Assembly (NCBI GenBank): GCA_046341215.1
Contig: JBKDRU010000005.1
Span: forward strand, 79,233 to 143,232
Source: Vampirovibrionales bacterium
GTDB taxonomy: Bacteria; Cyanobacteriota; Vampirovibrionia; Vampirovibrionales; JAJTHC01
Reading direction: 5' to 3'
Length of the DNA stretch: 64,000 nt
The notes under the pieces were generated by a model. The model did no database searches. It saw only the letters and a program-made list of their open reading frames with translations, and was not told where the DNA came from. Shown piece by piece: positions 22,809 to 62,561 of this stretch. The position numbers and the translations under genes were made by a program. Numbering within the stretch: position 1 is the stretch's first letter; each line of letters opens with the position of its first letter.

Positions 22809-23594
22809 TCACATTTTGACAAAAACGGTACCGTCCGTCTGTACTTGTCCCAAATAGATCTTATGATTATAACCACTTTGCTTGACCTTAATCATATCCC
22901 CAATGCCCCCATTTTGCATGGCTTGAGCATCCAATACCAAACGAATGGGGCGTGTACTTTGATGCACTTCTACCACCAATTTCACCGTCTGATTCATCAA
23001 AACCGCAGGGGGCGTCTTGACTTGAAATTTTGTAATCAACTGCCCCTTGCTTAAATTCGTGCGAGCTATGGTGGAAGTAGGTAAATCGCTCAAAAGTAAT
23101 TGGCTCACGTCTCGTAAATTGACCGTGCTGGTCGCCCGTTCCACTTTCCCGACCAAGCTTGCGCCAAACGGAATAGCTTCTTTTACCTGCCACCCCAAGA
23201 CCTGCTTTTGCAAAACCAAAGGCAAGACCAAAATCGTTTGACGATTGGACTGTGTGCCTTCTAACACAAGATTAACACTGCCGTAACCCTGTTGAAAAAC
23301 AGAAGTATCCACCCCACCATTCAAACTAAGGTTATACGCTTCCCCTGCCAGAAGTTCAAGCGAGCGAAACTTACGAGTCGCTGCCACGTTAATCCCTAGA
23401 ACAAAATCGCAGGTTTTAAGCCCTTTGGATTGACAATAGGCTTGTGTAGAAGCGTCGAGTAAAGGCTTGACCTTTTCTTGTAAGTGAGGGGCTTCCAACC
23501 ATTGTTCGGCACATGCGATGTTCGGAATTAGCCCCAAAAACGAGATAAAGACAATCCCTAGGATGTGGAAGGAAAAAAGGGACGGTCTGTTCAC
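22809..23594 (-). CDS. flgA: Flagellar basal-body P-ring formation protein FlgA
   Basis: An N-terminal signal peptide is present. The C-terminal SAF-like segment (GGIGDMIKVKQSGYNHKIYLGQVQTDGTVFV) is typical of FlgA. The gene is 15 bp downstream of flgG on the same strand. Confidence 0.6.
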   Translation of the reverse strand: MNRPSLFSFHILGIVFISFLGLIPNIACAEQWLEAPHLQEKVKPLLDASTQAYCQSKGLKTCDFVLGINVAATRKFRSLELLAGEAYNLSLNGGVDTSVFQQGYGSVNLVLEGTQSNRQTILVLPLVLQKQVLGWQVKEAIPFGASLVGKVERATSTVNLRDVSQLLLSDLPTSTIARTNLSKGQLITKFQVKTPPAVLMNQTVKLVVEVHQSTRPIRLVLDAQAMQNGGIGDMIKVKQSGYNHKIYLGQVQTDGTVFVKM

Positions 23595-23609
23595 AGTAAA
23601 ATCCCTAGC

Positions 23610-24398
23610 TTATACGATTTGGTTAATGGTTTGGAGCATTTGATCGCCCGCTTGCATGACTTTTGAGTTGGCTTCAAAAGCCCGTTGAGCGGTAATCAAA
23701 TTGATGAGTTCTTCAACAATCTGCACGTTAGAGTTTTCTAAGAAACCTTGCCCAATCGTCGTTCTGGCAAATTCGCCTTGACCCAACTGCCCGACAATCG
23801 GATCGCCTGAAGATGGCGTACGGGTATATAAGTTGCGCCCTTGGGCTTCAAGTCCCGCAGGGTTAGCAAAGCGAGCGAGCTGAATTTGACCGATTTCTTG
23901 GAAGTTACCCGTGGCATCGCGAATACTAACCGAGCCGTTCGCTCCAATGGTGACTTCGGTAGAATCTTGGGGAATCGTCATTTGAGGAATGAGAGGGTAG
24001 CCGTCTGTGGTCACGATGCTACCGTTGGCATCTCGTTTGAAGGAACCGTCTCGAGAATAGCCGATTTGCCCGTTGTCGAGCTGGATTTGGAAGAAGCCGT
24101 CGCCTTGAATCGCCATATCTAAGGGATTGGCGGTTTGAATAATCGGGCCGTTAATAAAGTCACGTTGCGTGGCAGAAATACGAGTCCCTAAGCCCACTTG
24201 TACGCCAACAGGGTCAATGGTGCCTTGGCTCCCTAATGAACCGGGCGATGAAAAGGTTTGGTTAATGAGATCTTGAAATTCAGCACGGGTTTTTTTATAG
24301 CCTGTGGTGTTGACATTTGAAACGTTGTTGGCGATAATATCCATGTTAAACTGTTGCGTCGTCGCACCAGTGGCGGCAGTGTATAGTGATCTTAACAT
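23610..24398 (-). CDS. flgG: Flagellar basal-body rod protein FlgG (distal rod)
   Basis: The N-terminal rod signature LYTAATGATTQQFNMDIIANNVSNVNTTGYKK and the C-terminal rod domain are present in a 262-aa protein. Confidence 0.8.
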   Translation of the reverse strand: MLRSLYTAATGATTQQFNMDIIANNVSNVNTTGYKKTRAEFQDLINQTFSSPGSLGSQGTIDPVGVQVGLGTRISATQRDFINGPIIQTANPLDMAIQGDGFFQIQLDNGQIGYSRDGSFKRDANGSIVTTDGYPLIPQMTIPQDSTEVTIGANGSVSIRDATGNFQEIGQIQLARFANPAGLEAQGRNLYTRTPSSGDPIVGQLGQGEFARTTIGQGFLENSNVQIVEELINLITAQRAFEANSKVMQAGDQMLQTINQIV

Positions 24399-24596: not shown

Positions 24597-25517
24597 TTGA
24601 AACTATTTCAGGTATTACTCCCTTTTCGACAACAAAAACCTGAAATATACCATATCCCTCCCCCTAATTCTAAAGTGCGTAAAGTTCTAGAACATTGCCC
24701 TAGAGGTCACTTAAGTGGTGAAGGATTAATGCACTATTGGGTAGTACTTTCAGTCGACCGTTTTGTTAAAGCCATCCCCAATACTGCAAGAGGTGCTAGA
24801 GAAGCAAAGCTTAATAATGAAATTTATGACCGTTTTGTAAAAGCAGGGCTTCAAAAGCACATTCCTGAACTATATTCCTATTCTTCTTTTCCAGCAGATC
24901 CAAAAAGAAAATTACCTCGCTCATTGAAACATAATGTTATTCTGCTTGAATTTGAAAGTATTGACGGGAAATCATTAAGCCAGCTGAGACGAAAAGGCGT
25001 TTATTCACATGAAGATATTAACACCCTATTAAACGAGGAAATTGCCCCCATGTTGTTTGAAGTCTATAAAAAAACGGGCTATATTTTCTTTGATAGGAAT
25101 TCGGGGAACTTCATGGAATCGACTAATAAAAAGGGGGGGAAAGTCATTACGATGGTTGATTTTACCCCTTGTTTTGTCAAAGACTTAAGCAAGATGACAC
25201 TGAGGCAGATTTTCAGTAAAGAAGTCATGGGTGCAAAGCTTTTAAAAGAATTAACAACCCACGAAAAAGCCCTATTAAAACAGCATGAGAATGTGACGTG
25301 GGACGCCTTGCAAAAAGCAACAGAGCCCATTGAAGGGTTGGACGACCAAACGCTCAAAGCTTGGGTCGATTCAAAAATAGAATCTCGTATTGCGGAACAT
25401 CTTGCACATGAACATCACCGAAATCAATATGATTGGCGAGCCGTATTAAAAAAAACGTCCATACGATTCGGCTTTAATCGGTGGATGGTATCACTCTTGC
25501 ATGCTCTAAAAAAATAA
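24597..25517 (+). CDS. Atypical protein-kinase-like fold ORFan (hypothetical)
   Basis: A catalytic-loop-like FFDRNSGNF (D-x4-N), a DFG-like VDFTP and a VAIK-like FVKAI are present. The start is uncertain: TTG at 24597, or ATG at 24729 preceded by a GAAGGA ribosome-binding site. The gene looks AT-rich by eye. Confidence 0.3.
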   Translation: MKLFQVLLPFRQQKPEIYHIPPPNSKVRKVLEHCPRGHLSGEGLMHYWVVLSVDRFVKAIPNTARGAREAKLNNEIYDRFVKAGLQKHIPELYSYSSFPADPKRKLPRSLKHNVILLEFESIDGKSLSQLRRKGVYSHEDINTLLNEEIAPMLFEVYKKTGYIFFDRNSGNFMESTNKKGGKVITMVDFTPCFVKDLSKMTLRQIFSKEVMGAKLLKELTTHEKALLKQHENVTWDALQKATEPIEGLDDQTLKAWVDSKIESRIAEHLAHEHHRNQYDWRAVLKKTSIRFGFNRWMVSLLHALKK

Positions 25518-25546: not shown

Positions 25547-27415
25547 CTACTTTGTGGTAGCGTTAGATGAAGTTTCTTCAGGCTTTGGCGGAGCATCCTT
25601 CGCTTTTTTGAAACGATATTCGGTTTCGGTGACCACTTGATTCAACCATACAGGGAAAAAGCCAATAACCGCAGCCACTAAAACGTAACCAATCGAATCG
25701 ATAGGGGATCTCATATTACGTGCCGATTCAGATAAAATACGACGAACCTCTAAGGATTCAAGCGTTGGGAGCTTCAACGTCTTCTTGACCCAATCTAAAG
25801 CAGGTAAGGGTACCTTCGTGCCTAAAAAGTTAAACGACGCTTTTAAGTGCTTTGCCCCATCGCTTTGAAGGCGTTTAATTGTGGCATCCAAGGCATCGAC
25901 TTCTTTCATCGCACTGGCAGAATACGTATACATGGCTTTAAAGTGCTTTAAAACGCCTTGTCCATGTGAAGAATTTAAGACATCCAACACGTTTTGACCT
26001 GCTCTTAAGGCAGCCACGCTATCTTCTAATTGAGTAAAATGCTCATTTTTCAGGGTATTAAAGACTTGCGAATAGCTTAGCGCTTTACCGTCTTTGGATT
26101 TAGGATGGGTGGCCATGACTTTTTGGGTGCAGACATCGATAAAATGTTGATAGTTCAGGGCTTTGTCTGCCATGAGGTTAAAGGCAGTGATGTCACCTTT
26201 TTGCATAGCCAAATCTAAATGCCCTTTGAAAGTGGCGTAATCAGGGGTTTGTGTCGCTGCTTTTAAATAGGCTTTTTCTTTAGGAAGTTCCCCAAGCAAG
26301 GCTTCTTCTTGAATCTTTTTGTGAAGACCTTGAAGATCATCGGCGACGATTTCTTTTAAGGCCTTAAGCGTGATGTGTTCTACCGCAAAGTCTTTGTCTA
26401 AACCCTTGAGTTCAAATAAGCGACGAATCAAGGTATCGGGATCCGTATTAAGGGTGGCACGACGCATCGTCTTCGTTCCTTGTTCAAGGGAAAGCTCGTT
26501 AATCGCATCGTAGAAATGGGTGCTTAAATGTGTTTTTGCGGTGCCTACGTCTTGCGTATGAGCAATCATTTTACGCCCCCCACTATGAAGCGCATCGATC
26601 ATTTGAAGCATAAAGCGAGCCTTTGCTTTTTCATCCATCGACGCTTGGGGATTGTTCAATGTTTTCAAAAATCGCGTCGTTTCCGTTTGCCAAAGCGGGT
26701 AAGCTTGAAGGTAATCTTCCATAGGTTTGGCTAAATTACTATTCGCTTTATGCATGGCTGCAAGTTTAGCCAACGTTTCTGGTGCATTGGGGGTAAGGTT
26801 ATAAATTTCTTTAATTTGCTGATAAGTAATCGAATGAACTGGCTTACGAGGGTTTAAGCTTCCGTGCATGAGCATTAGATTGGTATGCTTAGGGCTTTTA
26901 CCTAAGCTGAATAAGGTGCCGTCTTTTTGTTTTTTAGCCAGCATCGCATGCTTAACAGGCTCTAACGCAAACAAGAACAGTGAAATAGACAACACATCCC
27001 GAATAAGCACATCTCGAATTGCACGGTAATCACGCCCTTCAGCTATACCGTCATTATCTTCATCGATTTCAGGCGCTCTGAGGTATTCAGAATGCATACG
27101 AGCAGGCATCATCGAACCAAAGAACATTAAAATCATGAAGCTCAAAGGCAACCTGGGAATAATTACCCCAAAGAGTTCAGGTGTTTTTTCAAATTTGGCA
27201 AATTCCACACTGTCCGTGAGTAGGGACGTCATTTTTGCAGTAGTCATTTGCACCGCTTTCGATGCTGGGTTGGATGTATTTCGAGCCTGAGCATTTAGGC
27301 GATCCGAAAAGTTCTTGCCTTTAATAGGAATACTTTTCACGTCATGGTAATAAAAGTGATTCAGGGCATCCACAAAGCCATTATTGTTGTAAGGGGATTT
27401 ATTAGACATCATCAT
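25547..27415 (-). CDS. Large hypothetical membrane-associated protein (622 aa), second gene of a two-gene operon
   Basis: The start is MMMSNKSPYNNNG, which is Ser/Asn-rich. Hydrophobic segments lie near residues 85-105 and 575-595. Its ATG overlaps the stop of the upstream gene (ATGA). Confidence 0.6.
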   Translation of the reverse strand: MMMSNKSPYNNNGFVDALNHFYYHDVKSIPIKGKNFSDRLNAQARNTSNPASKAVQMTTAKMTSLLTDSVEFAKFEKTPELFGVIIPRLPLSFMILMFFGSMMPARMHSEYLRAPEIDEDNDGIAEGRDYRAIRDVLIRDVLSISLFLFALEPVKHAMLAKKQKDGTLFSLGKSPKHTNLMLMHGSLNPRKPVHSITYQQIKEIYNLTPNAPETLAKLAAMHKANSNLAKPMEDYLQAYPLWQTETTRFLKTLNNPQASMDEKAKARFMLQMIDALHSGGRKMIAHTQDVGTAKTHLSTHFYDAINELSLEQGTKTMRRATLNTDPDTLIRRLFELKGLDKDFAVEHITLKALKEIVADDLQGLHKKIQEEALLGELPKEKAYLKAATQTPDYATFKGHLDLAMQKGDITAFNLMADKALNYQHFIDVCTQKVMATHPKSKDGKALSYSQVFNTLKNEHFTQLEDSVAALRAGQNVLDVLNSSHGQGVLKHFKAMYTYSASAMKEVDALDATIKRLQSDGAKHLKASFNFLGTKVPLPALDWVKKTLKLPTLESLEVRRILSESARNMRSPIDSIGYVLVAAVIGFFPVWLNQVVTETEYRFKKAKDAPPKPEETSSNATTK

Positions 27416-29085
27416 GACACCTTATCCTCCCCCACTGGTTTTGAAGCAGATGCTTTCAAGTGCTGGCGAATGGCGGCTTGCTTACTCAAAGGCAAGCCTT
27501 CCGTGGGTACAGGGGCTTGCGTATTTTTTTCATGGGGTTTGGCTTTGTTGAGCGTGACTAAGCGGTTGGCGGGGTATTCTCGTCCTCTTTGAATCGCATG
27601 AGACAAGTACCACATCCAGCCCAGCATCCACATCAAAGAACCTAGTGTAATGAAGGCTTTGGTGGCTTTTGCGGTATTGAAAGATTGAGCAAGGGCCTCC
27701 CTGAAATCACCCTTACCTGCTTTAGCAAAGAAATTACGTAAGCCTGCCACCATTAAATCACGTCCCTGGTCCATACCACGTAAATGATATAAGAAAGCCT
27801 TTTGAGTAGTTCCCTTACCCTGCATGGTATTCAGATGGATCATTTGCTTTTTCATACGTGTATTTGGGGAATGAATGGCGTTCGCCTTCAAAGCCGTGTG
27901 TTCTGCAATGTTATACAACGCTTGCATTTTAGCGGTTAACAGGGTATGTTCTTCACGACGTGTCTTATTAAAGAAAATAGAACCTGAACCATGTTCAACA
28001 TCAAACGCTAACAACTTGCCTTGAACATCAGCTATTTCTTTTATGACTTGATCCAAGGTCACATCTTTTAAGCTAAGTAGTGAATTGTTGTTGAGTTTGG
28101 TATGACTATTTAAAGACGCTTTTAATCCAAAAAGCTCGTCGTCTTTTAAGCCTTTTTTCAGGCTGTTTAAATGCCCATTACTCAGATGATAATAGGGATT
28201 GATCAAAGTATTGCCATGAAATTCGATCGCTACTTTTTCTTGACGCTTTAGATCAGGAATGCCTTCAAAAACACGTTCCACATAGCCTTTGCCGAAGGCT
28301 TCTAAGTTTTTTCGATCTTGGGGGTTAGTCGGCCGAATGGGTGTTTCAGTCAAAAACTGTTGCACATTTTGATGTTCTTGCGTCAGTTCGCTTTCAGACA
28401 TCTGCAAGGAACGACGCCCTGTCCAGCTTAAAAACTTGTTACGACTGAGTAGAGGCACTAGACCAAACACCAAGGCAGGCACCAGCAAGGAACCTGGGGC
28501 CGCTTGTACTTCTCTCATTATTTCTTCACCCAAGTTCGCCCAATTGGCATTTTGGGATTTTTTGCAGCGAATATAAATCCACTTATTTAAGCCTTTGCGT
28601 TGTTGGGCTTCAGGGTCTTTTTCAGGGTCATAAGGCACGGCCCCTCGTTGTAAAGAACGTGAAATACGAGGAAACCCCATACCCACAAAGTCTAAAATCG
28701 TAAAATCCCAAAAGAATTGTGAATCAATTTTAGATGCCAAATTTGCCGCTAGTACTGGATTCAATGTGGACGCATACCCTACTGCTGCTAAAGTCAGCAG
28801 TTCAGGCGAAATTTCAAATTTGGCTTCTTCGTGCTTCTTTTTTCGTCGCTTGAAGGGGTTGAGTCGCTGTGCTAAAGAAGTTTTTTCGGTGGCTTTCCCT
28901 TCCATTTCAGTGGCTGGAGTGGGTAAGGAAGGCTGGGTTTCGAAGGCATCGTGAGTAGGGAATTCTTCTATCATCATATTAGTTAAAGAAGGCGTGGATG
29001 CCTTTCGCCTTTGCGGCTCGTCTTGTTCAGCTTTGAGCTTTGCAAGTGTATGATAATAAAGAGACGACTGTTTAATGGACATCAT
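27412..29085 (-). CDS. Large hypothetical membrane-associated protein (~557 aa), first gene of the operon
   Basis: The frame opens at a TTG at 29097 and the likely start is ATGATG at 29085. There are two hydrophobic segments and no recognisable domain. Confidence 0.55.
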   Translation of the reverse strand: MMSIKQSSLYYHTLAKLKAEQDEPQRRKASTPSLTNMMIEEFPTHDAFETQPSLPTPATEMEGKATEKTSLAQRLNPFKRRKKKHEEAKFEISPELLTLAAVGYASTLNPVLAANLASKIDSQFFWDFTILDFVGMGFPRISRSLQRGAVPYDPEKDPEAQQRKGLNKWIYIRCKKSQNANWANLGEEIMREVQAAPGSLLVPALVFGLVPLLSRNKFLSWTGRRSLQMSESELTQEHQNVQQFLTETPIRPTNPQDRKNLEAFGKGYVERVFEGIPDLKRQEKVAIEFHGNTLINPYYHLSNGHLNSLKKGLKDDELFGLKASLNSHTKLNNNSLLSLKDVTLDQVIKEIADVQGKLLAFDVEHGSGSIFFNKTRREEHTLLTAKMQALYNIAEHTALKANAIHSPNTRMKKQMIHLNTMQGKGTTQKAFLYHLRGMDQGRDLMVAGLRNFFAKAGKGDFREALAQSFNTAKATKAFITLGSLMWMLGWMWYLSHAIQRGREYPANRLVTLNKAKPHEKNTQAPVPTEGLPLSKQAAIRQHLKASASKPVGEDKVS

Positions 29086-29361
29086 ACGAATGTGCAAAAC
29101 CTATACTTTAAAATCCCAATGAACGAAACGATGCTTGTAGCTCCTAAGTGTATGGAAGTAACCATTCACAAACGTTACAAGATTCAAAGCCACATCAGCA
29201 TAAAACCCTTTTTTAATAAGGATTGTGCCAAACGTCGTTACATTCGAAAACGAGAGAAGACGATAACACCACGATGAGAATACGAGAAAAAACGTTCGGT
29301 GAATATATTCAAAATATTAAGAATTTAGTTTACCTCATAATGGGCGTTTTGTCAAAGGTTG

Positions 29362-31276: not shown

Positions 31277-32245
31277 ATGAACTTTCCTTCTCTTGCAGTG
31301 CATCCCTTAATTTTCCCCAGTCAACATAAGACGTCTTTGACTCAAGCGTCTCCCGCAAAACGTGTTTCACCGTCACCCTTGTCGCAACGTCTGGGGGTCA
31401 CATTTGTAAATGAAGCGGGGGGAATTTTAACCAAAGCCGATGCTTATAAACGATTAATAGACTTTTTTTCTCACAATCTCAATGCTGTTTTAGAAACTTA
31501 TCTAAGTGGTAGAACCCCACCCACAGAAAAAGAACTAAAAACTTGGTTGGGTTTGCTTGAAGCAGATTTTGAAAACAAAGCCCGTCTTTTGGCAGCACTT
31601 CCCGATGAAATTAAGGTTCGGATTTCATTAGGAAGCGATCCTATATTGACCTTATATGAGCGAGAAGTCGATTTCAAGACTTTAAGAGATTGTATCGATA
31701 CTGCTCTCAAGGCAGGTAATGGCTCTTCCTACACAAATGCACTGAAATATAATATGCCATCTGACACAGATCCTAATATGATGGTTCCCATTATTTCGAT
31801 AATAGATGATAAAGGGAATCTGCCTTTTATAACTCATCATCTTAGGTTCCATGCGGTAACTAAGAACATTCCTTATAATCCCAAATTTAATCGCCTCATG
31901 CTCCAATTTACCGAGCTCCTGGGACTATCCAGAAGAACTTCCCCTAAAACTAAACAGCCTCAGTATTGGTGGACTTTTCACCAAGTAATGGCGTCTCCTA
32001 TTCATAAACGCATCCCCAAAGAGAAGATAGCTGAAACACCTTTAATGCAAGAATGGAGTTCACGTAAAAACCGAACCACACTAAGTATAGAACTCAATAA
32101 ATTATCCAGAACAGAAACTCGTTCCATCTCTACATGGATTTGGGACATATTGCGTGAAAGGATGCCAGACTACTCTTTGTCAGGAATAGCGACCCTGCCA
32201 CAAAGAGAGCTTCCCAAAAAGCTCCCTCTCCCAGCTCCTAAATAA
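31277..32245 (+). CDS. Hypothetical ORFan (322 aa)
   Basis: The ATG was verified. The N-terminus is Ser/Pro/Thr-rich with no hydrophobic signal. No motif was recognised. Confidence 0.45.
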   Translation: MNFPSLAVHPLIFPSQHKTSLTQASPAKRVSPSPLSQRLGVTFVNEAGGILTKADAYKRLIDFFSHNLNAVLETYLSGRTPPTEKELKTWLGLLEADFENKARLLAALPDEIKVRISLGSDPILTLYEREVDFKTLRDCIDTALKAGNGSSYTNALKYNMPSDTDPNMMVPIISIIDDKGNLPFITHHLRFHAVTKNIPYNPKFNRLMLQFTELLGLSRRTSPKTKQPQYWWTFHQVMASPIHKRIPKEKIAETPLMQEWSSRKNRTTLSIELNKLSRTETRSISTWIWDILRERMPDYSLSGIATLPQRELPKKLPLPAPK

Positions 32246-32646: not shown

Positions 32647-35283
32647 TTAAACGGCTTTTTTGGAAGGCGTTGGCTTTTGAGTCAAGGCATACATCAACGC
32701 GGCTTCTTGAGGCGTCAGTTGCTTGGGTACGTTTGTCGCTTGTGAAGCCGTCGGGTTTTTCGCCTGTTGAGCCAAGGCGTATAACAAGGCGGCTTCCTTG
32801 GGGTCAATGTCTCGAACCTTTTTTGTGCCAGCCAAACGATAGGCTTCTTCGATTTGGGCAGGCGTCAAGGTGATTTTTTCTTTTGTGGACGCTTCAGGAT
32901 ATTTGGCAATTAAGGCAATATCTTCTTTTTTAATCGAACTAAACTCGCGATCTTTAATCGCTTTAAGGGTTTCTCTAGCTTTGTCACGCTCTTCGTATTC
33001 GACCAAATACGTGGGTTTGCCCACAGTCTTGTCTTGAATCGTTTCCACCCCTTTACGTAGTTTGCCTGCTAAGAGGAGTTGACCTCCCAGTCCAATGATA
33101 ACACCCGCCCCTGTCAACCAGTGAAAGCCTGCCACGACAAAGGGGAGTTTAAAGCTCGTCAAATAATGCCCCCCCATCAGCTTACCCAAACGATTGCCTC
33201 GGTTCAAGAACACCATCAACTGATGACCACCGATCATCGGCAAGGCAATGCCTAAACAGGCTCTTAAACCTGCTTTAATTTGTTCACCCAAGACAAAGGG
33301 CTTTTCAGCAGGCTTTTGGACTTCAGTGGTTTTAGCGTCTTTACTTTGAGGCTTGGCTTGGACGTTGTCTGGGACGTTGGCTTGAAGAGGTGGCGTAGAC
33401 TTTGCTTGGGGCGCTTTTGTTTTAGACGGCTTACCTGCGGCCATAAATGCCGCCCAGCCCGTACTAAAGGCGGTCACGGCTCCTAAGAAGAACATTAGAT
33501 ATCTTGGTTGAGCTAAACTCTTCAGCATACCAAGCAGCGGATTATGACCCCCCTTGCTCAAGTCAGACATCGCTATGGCTTTCTTTTTCAAGACTTCTTC
33601 AGGCTGTTCATGCAAGGCAAACTTTGCCATATCAATGACGCCACGCCACACGGAAGCCACACCACGTCCTAAACCACTCACGCCCCACGCTTCAGAAAGT
33701 TCTTTCTGATTATGAATGAATTGTTCATGTTCAGAGATGTTTTGCATTAAACGTTGAATCGAACGTGGCAAGACATCGTGGAGTTTTTTAAAGGCTGTTA
33801 AACTTTTTTGAGCATGGTTACTAAACTCCCCATTGAGTTTAAAGAAATCATTCACCGTCATTTTCTTCGAAGGATCTAACGCTGCAATGTGTTTTTCAAC
33901 CGCTTCTTTGCCCAACAAAGCTTCCCAATGGGCTTGATTACGGGTGATTTCTTGCAGAGCCGTGCTTCTTAATTCTACGAGCTTCGCTTCAGGTGTGAAA
34001 ATTTTAGAAAAATAACGACTGAATGGCAGGACTAAATTTTTATCCCCCACCTTTTTTAAACGAAAAATAGACGATTGTATATCTTTAACTTGAAGCAACT
34101 GGGGGTTATGTTCCAACGCCTTAACTTGTGCAGGCGTCATAGATTTGGCGGTATCGATATTCATATGTTCGGGCGACCAGAACCAACGCTGTCCTCCCTT
34201 GTAAAGGTCTGAATGAATTTGGTGTAAATAGGCGTGCTTCACGCTCGGCGGATTGACTCCGTTTACATACGCAATGACGGCTTTTTGAAGTTCTTTGACG
34301 GCGTCTGAATCATTAGGCGCACCTTCTAAAATAACCTTCATTTGTTGAGGACACTGTTGAATAAAATCATCAAACTGAGTTAAATATTCAGGATTCTTAT
34401 CTCTTCCCAAAACACTCAGGAGTTTGGATTTGGAGAATTTTGACATCGCTTCAGGCGAACCAGACGCCTTAGCGTTCGCTAAGGCTTCTTCAAATACGGC
34501 TTTAAAGTGATGATAGAGGTTTTGGTCTAACGCCTTATTTTCCTTGCCTTGGGTTAAAAAGCCTTTGGCATCTGCTTCAAGGAAGGGGTTCATCAACGTC
34601 GTAGTCACATGCCGATGCTGTTCAGGCGTCATGATTTGTTCAAAACGTTCGTAATAATCGTGATGGGTAGTCGCTTCTTTCAGCGTTTGATGCAAGTTGT
34701 TATAATGGGCAATATAGCGTTCTATCAAAGAATCGGGAGCAAGAGTTACCCCTGTTTTAAGCTTATTGGCCGTCGCATTGAAGGCATGTTCATGATTGCC
34801 AAGCCAATAACGGTTGTATTCATCGGAAGGCAGGTCGCCTAGGTACGCACGCATCCATGTAGGCAAGTTTTTAAAACTACCTTCTTTAGGCGTCCAGCCA
34901 TCTATCCATCTGGCGAAACCTCCCAAAAGGGTATTATGCGCGGTTTTTTTATTAAGGGGATTAATGGTTCCTAAGTTGGGATCCAAGCCCGCCAAGCGAT
35001 TAGCGATATTCGTAAACGCCAATAGAGAAACGAGTCCTAAGCCAATAGCAGCGCCTTTTTCGGGGTAAGACAAGCGTTCAGACGATTCTGGATCCATGAA
35101 CTGCATGGTCAGTGCAAGATCAAAGGCCTTTTTAGCCAACGAATCGCCTACTTCTCCCGCGTTTTCAAGTTGTTGTTGAACTTGATCTTGAGCGTTGTTT
35201 TGCACGTTTTTCATGGCTTGTAAGTGATTTGAATTTGTCGGAAAGTTCGGACTGCTTGATGAACTGGTATTAATCGATGCCAT
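32647..35283 (-). CDS. Large hypothetical protein (878 aa) with internal hydrophobic segments and C-terminal tandem repeats
   Basis: The N-terminus is Ser/Asn/Thr-rich (MASINTSSSSSPNFPTNSNH). There are three hydrophobic stretches, including a ~60-aa Gly-rich double-helix-like segment. The C-terminus carries two tandem copies of the motif (P/T)xEAAL(L/M)YAL(A/T)Q. Confidence 0.6.
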   Translation of the reverse strand: MASINTSSSSSPNFPTNSNHLQAMKNVQNNAQDQVQQQLENAGEVGDSLAKKAFDLALTMQFMDPESSERLSYPEKGAAIGLGLVSLLAFTNIANRLAGLDPNLGTINPLNKKTAHNTLLGGFARWIDGWTPKEGSFKNLPTWMRAYLGDLPSDEYNRYWLGNHEHAFNATANKLKTGVTLAPDSLIERYIAHYNNLHQTLKEATTHHDYYERFEQIMTPEQHRHVTTTLMNPFLEADAKGFLTQGKENKALDQNLYHHFKAVFEEALANAKASGSPEAMSKFSKSKLLSVLGRDKNPEYLTQFDDFIQQCPQQMKVILEGAPNDSDAVKELQKAVIAYVNGVNPPSVKHAYLHQIHSDLYKGGQRWFWSPEHMNIDTAKSMTPAQVKALEHNPQLLQVKDIQSSIFRLKKVGDKNLVLPFSRYFSKIFTPEAKLVELRSTALQEITRNQAHWEALLGKEAVEKHIAALDPSKKMTVNDFFKLNGEFSNHAQKSLTAFKKLHDVLPRSIQRLMQNISEHEQFIHNQKELSEAWGVSGLGRGVASVWRGVIDMAKFALHEQPEEVLKKKAIAMSDLSKGGHNPLLGMLKSLAQPRYLMFFLGAVTAFSTGWAAFMAAGKPSKTKAPQAKSTPPLQANVPDNVQAKPQSKDAKTTEVQKPAEKPFVLGEQIKAGLRACLGIALPMIGGHQLMVFLNRGNRLGKLMGGHYLTSFKLPFVVAGFHWLTGAGVIIGLGGQLLLAGKLRKGVETIQDKTVGKPTYLVEYEERDKARETLKAIKDREFSSIKKEDIALIAKYPEASTKEKITLTPAQIEEAYRLAGTKKVRDIDPKEAALLYALAQQAKNPTASQATNVPKQLTPQEAALMYALTQKPTPSKKAV

Positions 35284-35622: not shown

Positions 35623-35962
35623 ACTCACGACGGGAAAGAGAGGGAAAGGGCTCCCAAAGGAGCCAAAAGGGTCGGTTTTTAAGGAGCTACTCTTCTTCAT
35701 TATGACCGCAATTTAAAGCCTTGCCTAGTGACGAAACACCATGTTTTTCTTCGAAGTAAGTGAATTCATAAAATGAGATTGTTTTTTTAATATAACAATT
35801 TGTTAACATTTAGCAATTCGTAGCTTTATAAATTGTTTATTAAAGCATAAGACACAAATAAAGTTCTTTTGTCTAAATACCCCCAAAACTAGCTTTTCGT
35901 TGCTCTATTTATTCTTCTTTATTAAATTTCCCTGTACACCTCACATGAAAGGATCACTTAAG

Positions 35963-37207
35963 ATGATTTCTCTTAATCCAAATAACCCTTGGTTGCCTAA
36001 TAACCAACAACCCCCTTACGATTTAGCCACCACCTCTCCCTATCCATCTGCGTACCCTGCTTTAGGGACTCCCGCTCAAAATACGTATGCTGTAGGAGCA
36101 ACCTATGGGCAAAATACTTCTGGCTGGGATACCTATCAAGCTCCGTATCAAGCTCCGTATCAAGCTCCAGCTGCAAATACATTGCTCGCCACGAATACCC
36201 AGACTTACACGAATGCCCCTACTACGATTACTGAGAAAACGTATGCCCCTGATACGAGAATCTATGCCCCTGAAATCACCTACAATTATATTACGAAGAC
36301 TTTTGAATATAAGCCTACCATCACACACGAAGCAGCTCCAGCTCCAGTGTATCCACCTCCAGTGCCCCCCCCAGCTCCAGTGTATCCAGATCCGCCTAAG
36401 ATTGAGCTTCCTAAAATTCAATATCCACCTCAAGAGTCTAAGAAAAAAGAAGGGACAAACTGGTTGCCTTGGCTTATAGGAGGAGGAGGAATCCTCGCCG
36501 CCCTCTTCTTGCCTAAACTTTTCGGCAAGAAAGATAAAGTTGAAGCCAAAGCGGAAGCCAAAGCTGAAGCAACGGTTACGGCTACGCCTGAAGCTGTTGA
36601 AGAAAAATCTGAAACACCCGCTAAAAAAGACACGGTTTACACCAAGCTTGAAATCAACGCTCACGGAGATCCTATTTTTGTGACACGCAATAGTCTAGGT
36701 GAAGTTACTAGACAAGAAGAAGTCAAAAGTGGCGTAGTCTTTGAAGACGGCAACTCTTCTTTAAGCGTTCAAATGGACAGCCAAGATCCTAAGAACGTTT
36801 TTATGAAAAGCTTTAGCTATACAGTCGATGGTAAAACCGTTCAAGGTGATTCTAAAGGTAACGTTACCGTTGGCGGAAAATCCGTTGCGGTGGGTTCTAG
36901 TGCAGAACTGCCAAATGGCGGTACGGTCACGGTTTCTAAAGAAGACGGCACTTCTATCGGTGGCTTTAAAAATCAGTCTAAGATCGAAATTAAATCCCCG
37001 AACGAATCGGGTAATGGTTATGAAAACATTACTTTACATGCTCGTAAAAACAAACGTGGTTTAATCATGTACGAGTTTAATGCTAGTAAAAAATCTGAAG
37101 CCTCGAATACTGCTGAACGTGTCAAAAATGGATTTGTAAAAAAAGCCTTTGATAAAGAATATAAAAATCAAGGGGTGGATGATACCCCTGTCACCGATAA
37201 AAAATAG
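35963..37207 (+). CDS. Repetitive Pro-rich, single-pass membrane/surface protein (hypothetical)
   Basis: The ORF opens at 35900, and the likely start is MISLNPN at 35963. It has YQAPYQAPYQAP and PAPVYP repeats, one transmembrane segment (WLPWLIGGGGILAALFLP), an (EAKA)n run and a ~230-aa C-terminal domain. Confidence 0.5.
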   Translation: MISLNPNNPWLPNNQQPPYDLATTSPYPSAYPALGTPAQNTYAVGATYGQNTSGWDTYQAPYQAPYQAPAANTLLATNTQTYTNAPTTITEKTYAPDTRIYAPEITYNYITKTFEYKPTITHEAAPAPVYPPPVPPPAPVYPDPPKIELPKIQYPPQESKKKEGTNWLPWLIGGGGILAALFLPKLFGKKDKVEAKAEAKAEATVTATPEAVEEKSETPAKKDTVYTKLEINAHGDPIFVTRNSLGEVTRQEEVKSGVVFEDGNSSLSVQMDSQDPKNVFMKSFSYTVDGKTVQGDSKGNVTVGGKSVAVGSSAELPNGGTVTVSKEDGTSIGGFKNQSKIEIKSPNESGNGYENITLHARKNKRGLIMYEFNASKKSEASNTAERVKNGFVKKAFDKEYKNQGVDDTPVTDKK

Positions 37208-44258: not shown

Positions 44259-44696
44259 TTGTCTTTCACCCATTCTCTATGGCAGACTTTTAATCAGCTT
44301 CCTGCGTGGCTTTTATTGAGTTTAGGTGCTTGCCTAGGAGCCTTTGCCCGTTACGGATTCACTCGCTTGTTTTCCCTTGAATGGCAAGGCATTTTGGGGA
44401 TTAACCTACTGGGATGCTTAGGCTTTGGCATCGGACTAGGGTTGACAATCGCCCTGCCTGAACGATTCGGCACGCCTGCCTTTCGGCTCTTTTTTCTAAC
44501 AGGGTGCATGGGTGCGATGACGACCTTTTCTAGCTACATGTTTAATATTTACCAAGCCCTTAACACAAGTCCCACCCCAGCTTGGGGGACGCTACTTTTA
44601 AACATCGCCTTGCAACATGGCTTAGGTCTCGTCCTGCTCGCCTTTGGCGTATGGATGGTACCTAGACTATTAAGACTGTTTATACCCTTACCTTAA
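44259..44696 (+). CDS. crcB: Fluoride ion channel CrcB/FluC
   Basis: A four-transmembrane small protein with the CrcB signature LGACLGAFARYGF. It has a TTG start with a GAGGAG ribosome-binding site 10 nt upstream. It overlaps the flgL stop convergently by 9 bp. Confidence 0.7.
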   Translation: MSFTHSLWQTFNQLPAWLLLSLGACLGAFARYGFTRLFSLEWQGILGINLLGCLGFGIGLGLTIALPERFGTPAFRLFFLTGCMGAMTTFSSYMFNIYQALNTSPTPAWGTLLLNIALQHGLGLVLLAFGVWMVPRLLRLFIPLP

Positions 44697-45599
44697 GAAG
44701 CTAAACAGTGTCTGCGGTAAAATCCGAGCCATCACCCCTAAGCTCGATTGGTTAATCTGTTCTTGAAAACGTAAATCGGTCACCAGCTTGGGCATGTCCA
44801 CATCTTGAATCGTGCTATAAAGTTGCGCTGATGAATCTTGACGGGTTTGGGTGCGGTCTTGCGTCGCGTTAAGCTGATTCAACGTTGAACCAATCGTCGC
44901 TTGACTAGAAAGTAAACTATTCATTTGCGTCGTCAATAAGTCCAACTGCGTACGAGTGGTTATGGTATCTGCCGTTGCTAACGCATTTTTCAAATCAATC
45001 ATCGTTCTAAAGACGCCTGCGGTCGTGTCGCCTAATAAGGCGTCGCCAGTGACGTTTAAGGTCACGATTGAGTTTTTCGCCACATCAATTTGTCGTTGAA
45101 AACTTCCTGTGGCTGGTGTGCCTGAATAGGTGACGACATCACCGACTCGTGTATAAGGGACGGCATTCGTGGTAGCGCCTGCAAATAGGTGGATGTCGCC
45201 TTGTTTGAAATTACCCAACTGCACCAGTTGATCGGTCAACAAATTGACTTCTTTTGAAATCGACAACATACCACTAGCCCCTGTGGTGACGTTAGCCCCC
45301 TGTGTGGCGAGTTCTTTGGCACGTTGTAGGATTTCCACCATCTGCGTCATGGCAGCATCCGTCGCTTTGAGTTCAGAAACGCCAGTGGCAATGTTTTTAA
45401 TATACTGTTCGTCTTCATTCATACTTCGCGTGACGCTTAACAACTGGGTCAAGCCTAGTGGGTCGTCACTCGCACGAATAATTTTTCGACCCAAGGACGC
45501 TTGTTCTTGGATTTTATTCAACCGCACCTGTGATTGTTGTAACCACTGGTTGCTTTGTTGGGATTGGTAGCCTGTGGCGATACGTCCGATGCCTGCCAT
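44688..45599 (-). CDS. flgL: Flagellar hook-associated protein 3 FlgL (flagellin-like N/C domains)
   Basis: The N-terminal pattern LGRKIIRASDDPLGL carries the SDDP motif typical of FlgL, where flagellin has AKDDAAG. A C-terminal flagellin-like helix is present in a 303-aa protein. Confidence 0.65.
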   Translation of the reverse strand: MAGIGRIATGYQSQQSNQWLQQSQVRLNKIQEQASLGRKIIRASDDPLGLTQLLSVTRSMNEDEQYIKNIATGVSELKATDAAMTQMVEILQRAKELATQGANVTTGASGMLSISKEVNLLTDQLVQLGNFKQGDIHLFAGATTNAVPYTRVGDVVTYSGTPATGSFQRQIDVAKNSIVTLNVTGDALLGDTTAGVFRTMIDLKNALATADTITTRTQLDLLTTQMNSLLSSQATIGSTLNQLNATQDRTQTRQDSSAQLYSTIQDVDMPKLVTDLRFQEQINQSSLGVMARILPQTLFSFLR

Positions 45600-60464: not shown

Positions 60465-60926
60465 ATGATGACGCTACTAAACGCAATGACGATTTCGTCT
60501 TCAGGCATGACGGCTCACGCCCAACGTGCCCAAGTCCACGCCACGAACATGGCAAACTTAGGGACACCCGGCTATAAGCGTCAGATCCCTATTTTAAGCC
60601 AACAAGCCCAAGTGCCGTTTGCGAATTTAATGGGCAATGTGAAAGCCTCGGCGTCGGGCGTGCCAGCCAATACGTTGAACAATCTAGGCGAAGCAGGCGT
60701 TACGATGTCAGGCACGATAAGCGATCCCACCAAAGGGACGCAGCTCTATATGCCTTATCACCCCGCCGCCGATGCCAACGGTTATGTAGAAGCATCGACC
60801 GCTAACCCGTTGGTGGATATGGCAGATGCCTTAATGGCAAACCGCATGTTTGAAGCCAATTTATCAGTCTACGGCATTTTAAAAAGCATGGCTTCCCGAT
60901 CCATTGAACTGGGTTCAGGCAGATAG
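60465..60926 (+). CDS. flgC: Flagellar basal-body rod protein FlgC
   Basis: The N-terminal rod motif ISSSGMTAHAQRAQVHATNMANLGTPGYKR and the C-terminal rod domain (NRMFEANLSVY) are present in a 153-aa protein. Confidence 0.8.
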   Translation: MMTLLNAMTISSSGMTAHAQRAQVHATNMANLGTPGYKRQIPILSQQAQVPFANLMGNVKASASGVPANTLNNLGEAGVTMSGTISDPTKGTQLYMPYHPAADANGYVEASTANPLVDMADALMANRMFEANLSVYGILKSMASRSIELGSGR

Positions 60927-61018
60927 TTTTAATTTGCTTTAGGAAAAGACTTTCCCGAATTGCAATTATACTTTATACTATTAAATTGTATGATGGTTTT
61001 GCTGAAGGAGCTTTTTCA

Positions 61019-61690
61019 ATGGATTTCAAACTACTCACTTTTACCTTGCAACATGACTGGGCGGTCTTGTCCCCCATTATTGTGGCATCCCTCATTACAG
61101 GGGCGGTAGTGTTTAAACGTTTGAGCTTCTTTAAAAGCCAAGAACGTGAATTAGAATCTTTTGTTCAACGCTTGCAACGTGAACTCGCAAAACATAATTA
61201 TGATAACGCACTGGCTATTAGTGAACAGCTCGGCGGGATTTACGGTCGGGTTAGCCAAGAAGGCATCCAACTACTTCGCCAGCATGGTCGTGATGCCAAA
61301 TCGTTTGGTAGTGCCTTTGACATTACACTTGCTTTAGCCTTGCGACGTTTGGAACAGGGCTTGAATATTCTCGGCACCGTAGGCACGATTGCCCCATACT
61401 TAGGCTTGTTCGGTACCGTTGTTCGTATCTTGTTGACCTTTGGCGAAATGGCAAATTCGGCTCAAGGGCAAGCGTCTCAAGTGATGTTTGGTATTGGCTC
61501 TGCTTTAATTGCCACCGCGTTCGGTTTAGGTGTCGCGATTGTCGCTGTTGTGGCGAACAACTATTTCCGCTCCAAGGTCGAAAGCTTTGAAAATGATTTC
61601 CAATTGTTGAAGCTGGTCTTGCTTTCTTCGGTGGATGCTCCTCATACAACGTCTCAAGATCATCAGACGCAACACCCTGTTCATGCGTAA
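61019..61690 (+). CDS. MotA/TolQ/ExbB-family proton channel
   Basis: Three transmembrane helices and the family signature GTVGTIAPYLGLFGTVVRI are present. The ATG at 61019 follows a GAAGGAG ribosome-binding site. Confidence 0.8.
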   Translation: MDFKLLTFTLQHDWAVLSPIIVASLITGAVVFKRLSFFKSQERELESFVQRLQRELAKHNYDNALAISEQLGGIYGRVSQEGIQLLRQHGRDAKSFGSAFDITLALALRRLEQGLNILGTVGTIAPYLGLFGTVVRILLTFGEMANSAQGQASQVMFGIGSALIATAFGLGVAIVAVVANNYFRSKVESFENDFQLLKLVLLSSVDAPHTTSQDHQTQHPVHA

Positions 61691-61705
61691 AAGGAGCGAA
61701 ACCCT

Positions 61706-62167
61706 ATGGCGGCTCAGGTCAAACGTTTTGATGAAATTAATATTACGCCCTTAACCGATATCTTCTTGGTGCTGCTCATTATCATGATGGTGATTGCCCC
61801 TAGCATCGCTCAGAAAAATGAGGCGGTTGCATTGCCTTTGGTTGAAAATGGTAAAGCCATTAGCAAAAACCTCATTACAGTGGATGTGTCTGCCAAAGGG
61901 GACTACGACGTTCAAGGTGAATCGGTTCAAGCCAGTGAACTCGGTGCTAAAATTAAAGCCTTATTGCCGACGGTGACAGAACAAAAAGTGTTGTTGCGTG
62001 CTGATAAAGCCAGTTCTAACAAAGCGGTTTTAACCGTTATGAAAGCGGTTGCAGGTACAGGAGTAGAACGTATTGTTTTTGAAGGGGAAGCGGCTCCACC
62101 GAAAAAAGAAGCGTCCGAACAGCCGTCTATTTCTGAAGAAGGAGCATCCCTCAATGGCGAGTTCTAA
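61706..62167 (+). CDS. ExbD/TolR-family protein (copy 1)
   Basis: An N-terminal transmembrane segment (INITPLTDIFLVLLIIMMV) and a periplasmic ExbD-like domain are present. Confidence 0.75.
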   Translation: MAAQVKRFDEINITPLTDIFLVLLIIMMVIAPSIAQKNEAVALPLVENGKAISKNLITVDVSAKGDYDVQGESVQASELGAKIKALLPTVTEQKVLLRADKASSNKAVLTVMKAVAGTGVERIVFEGEAAPPKKEASEQPSISEEGASLNGEF

Positions 62168-62561
62168 AGGATTTAAGCGTTTTGATGAGATTAACATCAC
62201 GCCTCTCACCGATATTTTCTTAGTCCTGTTGATTATTATGATGGTTGTGGCACCCATGCTCAATAGTCAAGGCTTAAACATCAGCTTGCCTAGCTTGTCT
62301 GATTCGCTTCAAACCCCTGAAAAAGATCAAAAAGTCATTGAAGTGGATATTTTGTCGAATAATCAAATTAAGATCAACGATGAATTATTGCCATCGTCGG
62401 ATGATTTAACGCAACGTTTGTTGGCGTTAAAAACGGCGTTTCCTGATGGCGTGGTACTGAACTTGAGTCCGCTTGCGTTGCACGCGACCAGCATGAAGGT
62501 GTTGGATGCTGTTGAAGGGGCTAAAATAAGTGCTTTGTCTATTGTGGAATCTCCTCAATAG
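62154..62561 (+). CDS. ExbD/TolR-family protein (copy 2, tandem paralogue)
   Basis: Its N-terminal ~35 aa are nearly identical to copy 1 (FKRFDEINITPLTDIFLVLLIIMMVVAP). The ATG at 62154 follows GAAGGAG and overlaps copy 1 by 14 bp. Confidence 0.7.
   Translation: MASSKGFKRFDEINITPLTDIFLVLLIIMMVVAPMLNSQGLNISLPSLSDSLQTPEKDQKVIEVDILSNNQIKINDELLPSSDDLTQRLLALKTAFPDGVVLNLSPLALHATSMKVLDAVEGAKISALSIVESPQ

Follow-up and report, generated by a model that had tools for sequence, protein, structure and literature searches.

A class-restricted, translationally coupled gene pair of Vampirovibrionia that may encode a heteromeric inner-membrane complex

The window analysed here, 64,000 nucleotides (nt) of a Vampirovibrionales bacterium (assembly GCA_046341215.1, contig JBKDRU010000005.1, positions 79,233 to 143,232 of the forward strand), carries two overlapping genes, here called A and B, which an original prediction had described as a translationally coupled operon of two large membrane-associated ORFans. 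We propose that A and B form a heteromeric integral inner-membrane complex, each as one of its two subunits, and that it is native and confined to Vampirovibrionia (Melainabacteria); we give this reading a probability of roughly one half. It draws on a gene overlap that is kept among relatives, adjacency of the two genes in 25 of 25 loci, low ratios of nonsynonymous to synonymous substitution (dN/dS), conservation centred on hydrophobic modules, and invariant charged residues. Among the relatives of cyanobacteria that lack photosynthesis, Vampirovibrionia are the closest, and some of them prey on algae; to our knowledge, almost nothing is known of their cell biology. The gene pair and its immediate signals are:

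27412–29085, minus strand: gene A, the A-type subunit, 557 amino acids (aa) from the ATG at 29085; homologues share the start MMSIKQ
25547–27415, minus strand: gene B, the B-type subunit, 622 aa, directly downstream of the A-type gene in every locus examined
27412–27415, minus strand: ATGA stop/start overlap, in which A's TGA (27414–27412) overlaps B's ATG (27415–27413)
27426–27430, minus strand: GGAGG resembling a Shine-Dalgarno sequence, within the 3' end of A and 10 nt upstream of the B start codon
29327–29355, minus strand: promoter-like TTGACA-17-TAAACT, lying after the rsmH stop (29362) and ahead of A, matching at 10 of 12 positions

Both open reading frames (ORFs) and their ATGA stop/start were confirmed as predicted. 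The frame of A can be extended to a TTG (27412–29097, 561 aa); each close homologue opens with MMSIKQ, as A does when read from the ATG at 29085. The junction reads ...GGGGGAGGATAAGGTGTC-ATGA-TGATG, with three bases common to A's TGA and B's ATG. Searches with hidden Markov models (HMMs; E-values 1e-6 to 0) revealed an A-type gene followed directly by a B-type gene in 25 of 25 distinct loci, the window included, with proteins of 384–663 aa (A) and 336–661 aa (B), bearing out the expected co-occurrence across genomes. About 18 of the 19 other loci keep the ATGA overlap or have a 1-nt one, TAATG, in its place, and most relatives have a purine-rich Shine-Dalgarno-like GGAGG or AAGGAG 7–12 nt upstream of the B start. 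Overlap and Shine-Dalgarno-like site persist where amino-acid identity to the window proteins falls below 20–30%, and their presence in almost every relative, to below 20% identity, upholds the predicted coupled expression. Because A and B remain adjacent while the neighbouring genes change, the pair appears to be an obligate two-gene module. The overlap and the internal ribosome-binding site would couple translation of B to that of A, so that the two proteins would be made together in a fixed ratio. Upstream of A, the promoter-like site is suitably placed in the 265-nt gap after rsmH and is a candidate promoter, although sites of this kind are no more numerous in the region than chance would give. 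The GC content of A-B (0.43) is the same as that of the rest of the window and the surrounding chromosome.

A word-indexed search returned 15 clusters for A and 10 for B, and all the named ones are Vampirovibrionales metagenome-assembled genomes (MAGs); two of these named clusters carry the adjacent locus tags LW809_04515/04520. A profile search with the A alignment reached 124 representative clusters (50% identity) at E <=1e-3, 88 at <=1e-10 and 18 at <=1e-30, and the named members of the A family all come from Melainabacteria, Vampirovibrionales or 'Cyanobacteria bacterium' MAGs. Eleven loci were recovered in a genome scan, all from Vampirovibrionales or Melainabacteria save one on a contig titled 'Gammaproteobacteria bacterium', and a degenerate motif scan for further A-B loci in metagenomes gave three. 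Since all named relatives are Melainabacteria or Vampirovibrionales, the predicted lineage specificity held; the label ORFan did not, given 124 representative A clusters across these groups. Judged by sequence, A and B are a class-restricted family, not ORFans. Against relatives at 67–80% identity, dN/dS was 0.17–0.18 for A and 0.11–0.21 for B; the genes are thus real and under purifying selection. We rejected a mobile-element origin, as the A-B pair has no plasmid, phage or PHROG match.

The contig with the divergent title is locus L011 (JBEISK010000008.1), a MAG contig 96% identical to the window and syntenic with it over 13 kb. Its proteins share 90–100% identity with the window's orf878, DedA, RsmH, A, B, FlgG and Tig, 80% with FlgA and 32% with orf322. 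The contig is probably mis-binned or mislabelled, because it is nearly identical to and syntenic with the window while all other relatives are Vampirovibrionales.

The prediction that no known domain would be visible was likewise sustained. The best Pfam E-values were 0.21 for A and 0.065 for B, with scores far below the cut-offs, and NCBIfam E-values were at least 0.066 for both. PADLOC gave a single match for A or B, at 12 bits, and PHROGs gave none. No Pfam match at gathering score was found in ten distant A-type members, and none of the database homologues of A or B has a precomputed Pfam domain. In four profile searches against all PDB sequences, designed helical proteins were the best matches (E 0.03, not significant), and a literature search on Melainabacteria signature proteins returned nothing on the A/B family. 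The AlphaFold2 (AF2) model of A has a mean predicted local distance difference test score (pLDDT) of 61, reaching 80–93 at aa 225–480 (long helices plus a small sheet) but low in the membrane parts and the N-terminus; that of B is all-helical with a mean of 55. Foldseek, one of the remote-homology checks the prediction had pointed to, produced no match to solved structures below E 0.12, with template-modelling scores below 0.2. Flagellar junction proteins and WRB/Get1 were the two weak themes to recur, without significance for either. The family therefore appears to lie outside the described families tested (Pfam, NCBIfam, PADLOC, PHROGs, PDB), a novelty at the level of family, not of mechanism. 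The pair is co-conserved and its homologues carry no ordinary housekeeping annotation; the opposite on either point would have counted against the prediction.

Both proteins share one architecture, whose parts in the window are, with transmembrane abbreviated TM:

28444–28725, minus strand: conserved membrane module of A, aa 121–214, with the top conservation in the 130-sequence family
27661–28413, minus strand: central soluble domain of A, aa 225–475, long helices and a small beta-sheet
27562–27660, minus strand: C-terminal TM helix of A with the juxtamembrane motif Q.GREYPANRL, aa 476–508
27415–27561, minus strand: low-complexity Lys/Pro-rich C-terminal tail of A, aa 509–557, pLDDT <50
26948–27184, minus strand: conserved membrane module of B, aa 78–156
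25715–26947, minus strand: central all-helical domain of B, aa 157–567
25616–25714, minus strand: C-terminal TM helix of B with a TETEY motif, aa 568–600, RSP.D....VLVA.VIGFFPVWLNQ, the top conservation in B

Kyte-Doolittle analysis placed hydrophobic segments at about aa 94–117, 121–139, 195–214 and 476–498 of A and at aa 78–104, 132–155 and 568–597 of B, with peaks of 1.9–2.05. Neither protein has an N-terminal signal-peptide-like hydrophobic stretch, and the Lys/Pro-rich stretches are short tails past the last hydrophobic segment; in distant A-type members the tail is a longer stretch rich in Pro, Ala and Gln. The predicted hydrophobicity, lack of a signal peptide and Lys/Pro-rich tails thus stood, while the count of one or two segments per protein gave way to three or four. 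Conservation peaks at aa 121–200 and 481–510 in the 130-sequence A family and at aa 61–160 and 561–600 in B, that is, in the hydrophobic segments and their immediate flanks; the central helical domains diverge almost freely, and in B their length ranges from about 200 to more than 430 aa across the family. Distant relatives of A match almost exclusively within its membrane module. This module runs from a hydrophobic helix, FFWDFTILDFVGMGFP-R, through a loop (RG..YDP..DP) and NANW.N..EE..RE..APG to a TM helix. Eight residues of A are invariant in 82 diverse A-type proteins: D132, which sits within the hydrophobic helix FFWDFTILDFVGMGFP, R140, N181, E187, R191, E192, P197 and, within the post-TM motif EYPANR, Y504; Q499, A506 and R508 of the post-TM motif are nearly so. 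The B module has the order TPEL..IP.LPL-TM-PAR.HSE.LR, loop, DYRAIRDV.IRD, then the TM helix SISLFLFALEP, and 13 diverse B-type proteins share P90, R106, R113, D135, V136, R139, D140, P571, G585 and P588. In the ground plan common to A and B, a hydrophobic helix that ends in P-R is followed by a charged loop, a juxtamembrane helix of the form acidic-x-x-x-R-acidic and a TM helix; after these come a helical domain, a last TM helix and a low-complexity tail. In each protein the paired hydrophobic helices are joined by a charged and highly conserved loop, of 55 aa in A and 36 aa in B.

Deeper lineages carry a second pair, A'-B', transcribed divergently upstream of A-B and without Pfam matches:

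L022, 5031–7141, minus strand: A'-B' pair, overlapping genes, 451 + 252 aa
L023, 4131–7162, minus strand: A'-B' pair, overlapping genes, 679 + 333 aa
L029, 4763–7392, minus strand: A'-B' pair, overlapping genes, 563 + 313 aa
L030, 5060–7257, minus strand: A'-B' pair, overlapping genes, 441 + 290 aa

These pairs are mutually homologous and have the same architecture as A-B; no such pair turned up in the window or in the DNA that flanks A-B in close relatives. Single-comparison hhalign E-values were 3.4e-4 for A against A' (108 columns), 3e-3 for B against B' and 1.9e-4 for A' against B' (102 columns), with alignments co-linear on the membrane module and probabilities of just 10–48%, and the best window ORF for the B' HMM was B (E 0.0014). 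These matches are suggestive, and not proof, of a single superfamily in which A, A', B and B' would be ancient paralogues, an origin that would fit a hetero-oligomer of related subunits. For direct homology of A and B, hhalign was negative and we rejected it, the links running transitively through A' and B' alone. All-against-all BLAST and HMM comparison found no A/B paralogue inside the window, the 878-aa ORF at 32647–35283 being unrelated.

In the complex that we propose, the unstructured N-termini of A and B would lack signal peptides, the membrane module with its invariant Asp, Arg, Glu and Pro residues would be the functional core, because it is the constrained part, and the helical domains would serve as variable spacers or scaffolds. 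Several points weigh against it. Contact between A and B, their topology and an envelope role are what we infer. In the membrane parts of both proteins the AF2 models are of low confidence (pLDDT <50), the family-average hydropathy of the segments is just +0.9 to +1.5, and positive charges flank all of them, so that a positive-inside analysis gave an indecisive topology. Paralogy of A and B depends on the transitive matches at 10–48% probability, direct A-B comparison being negative with narrow and broad profiles. Co-variation in length of the two central domains, considered as a sign of a shared stalk, was rejected as unconvincing (Pearson 0.72, driven by two points; Spearman 0.37). The putative nature of the contact, the central-domain lengths and the missing direct sequence relationship would also suit another explanation, namely that A and B are independent membrane proteins, such as separate anchors or sensors, which are merely co-expressed and form no complex. 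We consider this unlikely, as strict adjacency in the same gene order in all 25 loci, nearly always with the overlap, to below 20% identity and through complete turnover of neighbours, is typical of obligate partners, and as the parallel architecture and the duplicated A'-B' pair also argue for partnership.

The flanks of A-B differ among loci (prfA/purS, pfkB/Wzy_C, aspS, uppS, TPR plus GT9, HDOD; TPR, tetratricopeptide repeat; GT9, a glycosyltransferase family). In the close clade the order is dedA-rsmH-A-B-(orf306)-flgG-flgA-tig, and in the window itself rsmH lies upstream and orf306/flgG downstream; elsewhere we found prfA-A-B-purS (L001/L002), A-B-pfkB-DUF4330-Wzy_C (L005) and methyltransferase-A-B-aspS (L010). 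In distant lineages, an orthologous, N-terminally TM-anchored TPR protein of about 450–475 aa with about 10 repeats (30–47% identity among lineages) is encoded downstream of A-B:

L022, 10587–11948, convergent to A-B: TPR protein gene
L026, 11395–12765, convergent to A-B: TPR protein gene
L028, 10953–12380, convergent to A-B: TPR protein gene
L029, 11075–12493, convergent to A-B: TPR protein gene
L030, 11693–13078, convergent to A-B: TPR protein gene

In L022, L028, L029 and L030, one or two GT9 glycosyltransferases follow this gene, one of which passes the NCBIfam cut-off for lipopolysaccharide (LPS) heptosyltransferase II, and uppS lies divergently upstream of A-B in L025, L026 and L028. Other envelope-type neighbours are dedA-rsmH (close clade), WecG (L028), Mur ligases (L030) and Wzy_C (L005). 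An identity of the TPR protein as LapB was rejected, since it gave just generic TPR scores under the cut-offs. The TPR/GT9/uppS block is not present around A-B in the window. Together, these neighbours give a weak lead, in which the surroundings of A-B may lean to cell-envelope biogenesis. Against it, envelope genes are common and several of these loci are related by descent; their presence beside A-B does not clearly exceed the expectation from chance and shared ancestry, and is not seen in all lineages. The most likely role for A-B, in which our confidence is much lower than in the complex itself, would be chromosomal housekeeping at the cell envelope, possibly in undecaprenyl- or LPS-dependent envelope assembly.

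Flagellar genes also occur near A-B. In the close clade flgG-flgA follow B, directly downstream on the same strand and about 150 bp away in L011 and L012, and fliMN-fliO-fliP lie 5–6 kb from A-B in L022 and L029. A lineage-specific flagellum accessory, for example a basal-body or stator-associated membrane scaffold, would account for this, and the weak top Foldseek matches are hook-filament junction proteins (E 0.12). These matches are not significant, a flagellar neighbourhood is absent in most other lineages, and flagellar genes are scattered over this genome, so that nearness is expected by chance; we regard a flagellar function as very improbable. Within the window, the flagellar genes (an FlgG-type rod gene, flgA, a flagellin or hook-associated-type gene and a rod-type gene) are dispersed over 22809–24398, 44688–45599 and 60465–60926.

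Between B and flgG, the window has a convergent gene, orf306 (24597–25517, plus strand, 306 aa), without Pfam or NCBIfam match. It is missing at this place in the 96%-identical L011 and in L012, where flgG directly follows B on the same strand, and is present in L013 (63% identity); it is thus a variable insertion that divides a possible A-B-flgG-flgA transcription unit. A terminator-like hairpin with a T-run at 25587–25604 (plus strand), within the 3' end of the B coding sequence on the opposite strand, is positioned such that it may terminate the convergent orf306 transcript. Three more window ORFs have no Pfam or NCBIfam match: 31277–32245 (plus, 322 aa), 35900–37207 (plus, 435 aa) and 32647–35283 (minus, 878 aa), the last with four to five hydrophobic segments, long Lys/Pro/Ala/Gln-rich stretches and 90% conservation in L011. 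At 60986–62561 (plus), a gene of the MotA/ExbB family precedes two ExbD-family paralogues that share 36% identity and whose ORF calls (61706–62167 and 62073–62561) overlap by about 95 nt; the second probably starts further downstream.

A bolder form of the proposal, which we hold to be doubtful, is that A-B and A'-B' constitute an undescribed membrane machine of Vampirovibrionia. Its core would be a new membrane module that carries a buried, invariant Asp together with Arg/Glu clusters and acts in ion conduction or on a lipid-linked precursor of the envelope, and its variable helical domains would span the periplasm or scaffold envelope assembly. If true, the sister lineage of photosynthetic cyanobacteria would hold both a new protein fold and an envelope complex of a new kind. 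A class-wide gene pair with no relative in a described family or solved fold would mark a lineage-defining membrane function, and through two new family definitions, hundreds of genes now annotated 'hypothetical protein' would gain the names of a defined pair. Phyla that have been little studied often have conserved hypothetical membrane proteins, which tempers the weight of the find. Vampirovibrio with its prey Chlorella is the one culturable system.

Effectors offer the first comparison with known systems. The original prediction likened the N-terminus of B to secretion-signal-like termini, and A and B might be secreted or translocated effectors, or a pore-forming translocator pair inserted into a prey membrane, like YopB/YopD, IpaB/IpaC and SipB/SipC of type III secretion systems (T3SSs). 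Like those pairs, A and B are encoded by adjacent genes, lack a signal peptide and are hydrophobic and rich in helices or coiled coils. The N-terminus is Ser/Asn/Pro-rich in B, and Ser/Thr/Asn/Pro-rich in B and its relatives taken together; export by way of such a terminal signal would go through a T3SS, the flagellar export apparatus or a type IV secretion system. Flagellar genes occur close to A-B in the window, L022 and L029, and the group has a predatory lifestyle, Vampirovibrio being an epibiotic predator with a type IV secretion system (PMC4451040). T3SS translocators have TPR class-II chaperones, and a TPR protein adjoins A-B in several distant lineages, where the SycD/LcrH model reached a summed score of 104.6 bits against a cut-off of 104.8. 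However, those chaperones are cytosolic and of about 160 aa, whereas the TPR neighbour has 450–475 aa (453–475 aa in L022, L026 and L028–L030), is TM-anchored and convergent, and is not next to A-B in the window. The A-B operon holds no secretion apparatus and no small class-II chaperone, no injectisome genes lie nearby, and its context is variable, chromosomal and housekeeping-like. Neither protein matches a translocator or effector family in Pfam or NCBIfam, or the translocators in sequence or fold. Their three or four hydrophobic segments lie at both protein ends, not in the middle, which better fits a resident membrane protein. The recurrent S/A-P-Y motif in the N-terminus of B and its relatives (SPY in B) suggests that this terminus holds a conserved sequence element and is more than an export signal of biased composition. 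Patchy distribution and rapid turnover are not what we see: the pair occurs in 25 of 25 loci, A-type proteins in 124 clusters, and dN/dS is 0.11–0.18. With class-wide conservation under purifying selection, centred on hydrophobic modules with invariant charged residues, and with plasmids and phages devoid of matches, secretion or injection as an effector is not supported, and we consider an effector or translocator pair quite improbable.

Chlamydial Inc proteins, defined by a bilobed hydrophobic domain, likewise combine the lack of a signal peptide with paired hydrophobic helices and a host-associated lifestyle. They differ from A and B, whose loops are conserved, charged and 55 or 36 aa long instead of short hairpins, which have an extra C-terminal TM helix, and which are class-wide. 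Matches to Get1/Get2 (WRB/CAML), a membrane insertase receptor of the Oxa1 superfamily, are non-significant and cover generic helical hairpins alone, and the order of TM helices and coiled coils differs.

The inner-membrane complex that we favour recalls two further groups. MotA/MotB, ExbB/ExbD and TolQ/TolR are two-gene, ion-driven membrane complexes; stator units use a proton-binding Asp and Pro residues, and A has D132 within a hydrophobic helix, with invariant Pro in TM helices. This is an analogy only, as homology is lacking and TM number and domain order differ; the MotA_ExbB and ExbD genes of the window (60986–62167) are recognised by Pfam, whereas A and B are not. PilN/PilO and FtsB/FtsL are translationally coupled partner pairs of bitopic envelope proteins. 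A and B exceed these five- to tenfold in size, have an extra C-terminal TM helix and a charged membrane module, show no Pfam or NCBIfam match, and have no pilus or divisome genes consistently adjacent; with PilN/PilO and FtsB/FtsL they share overlapping genes, a membrane anchor joined to a helical or coiled-coil domain, and the parallel build of partners that would be expected to heterodimerise.

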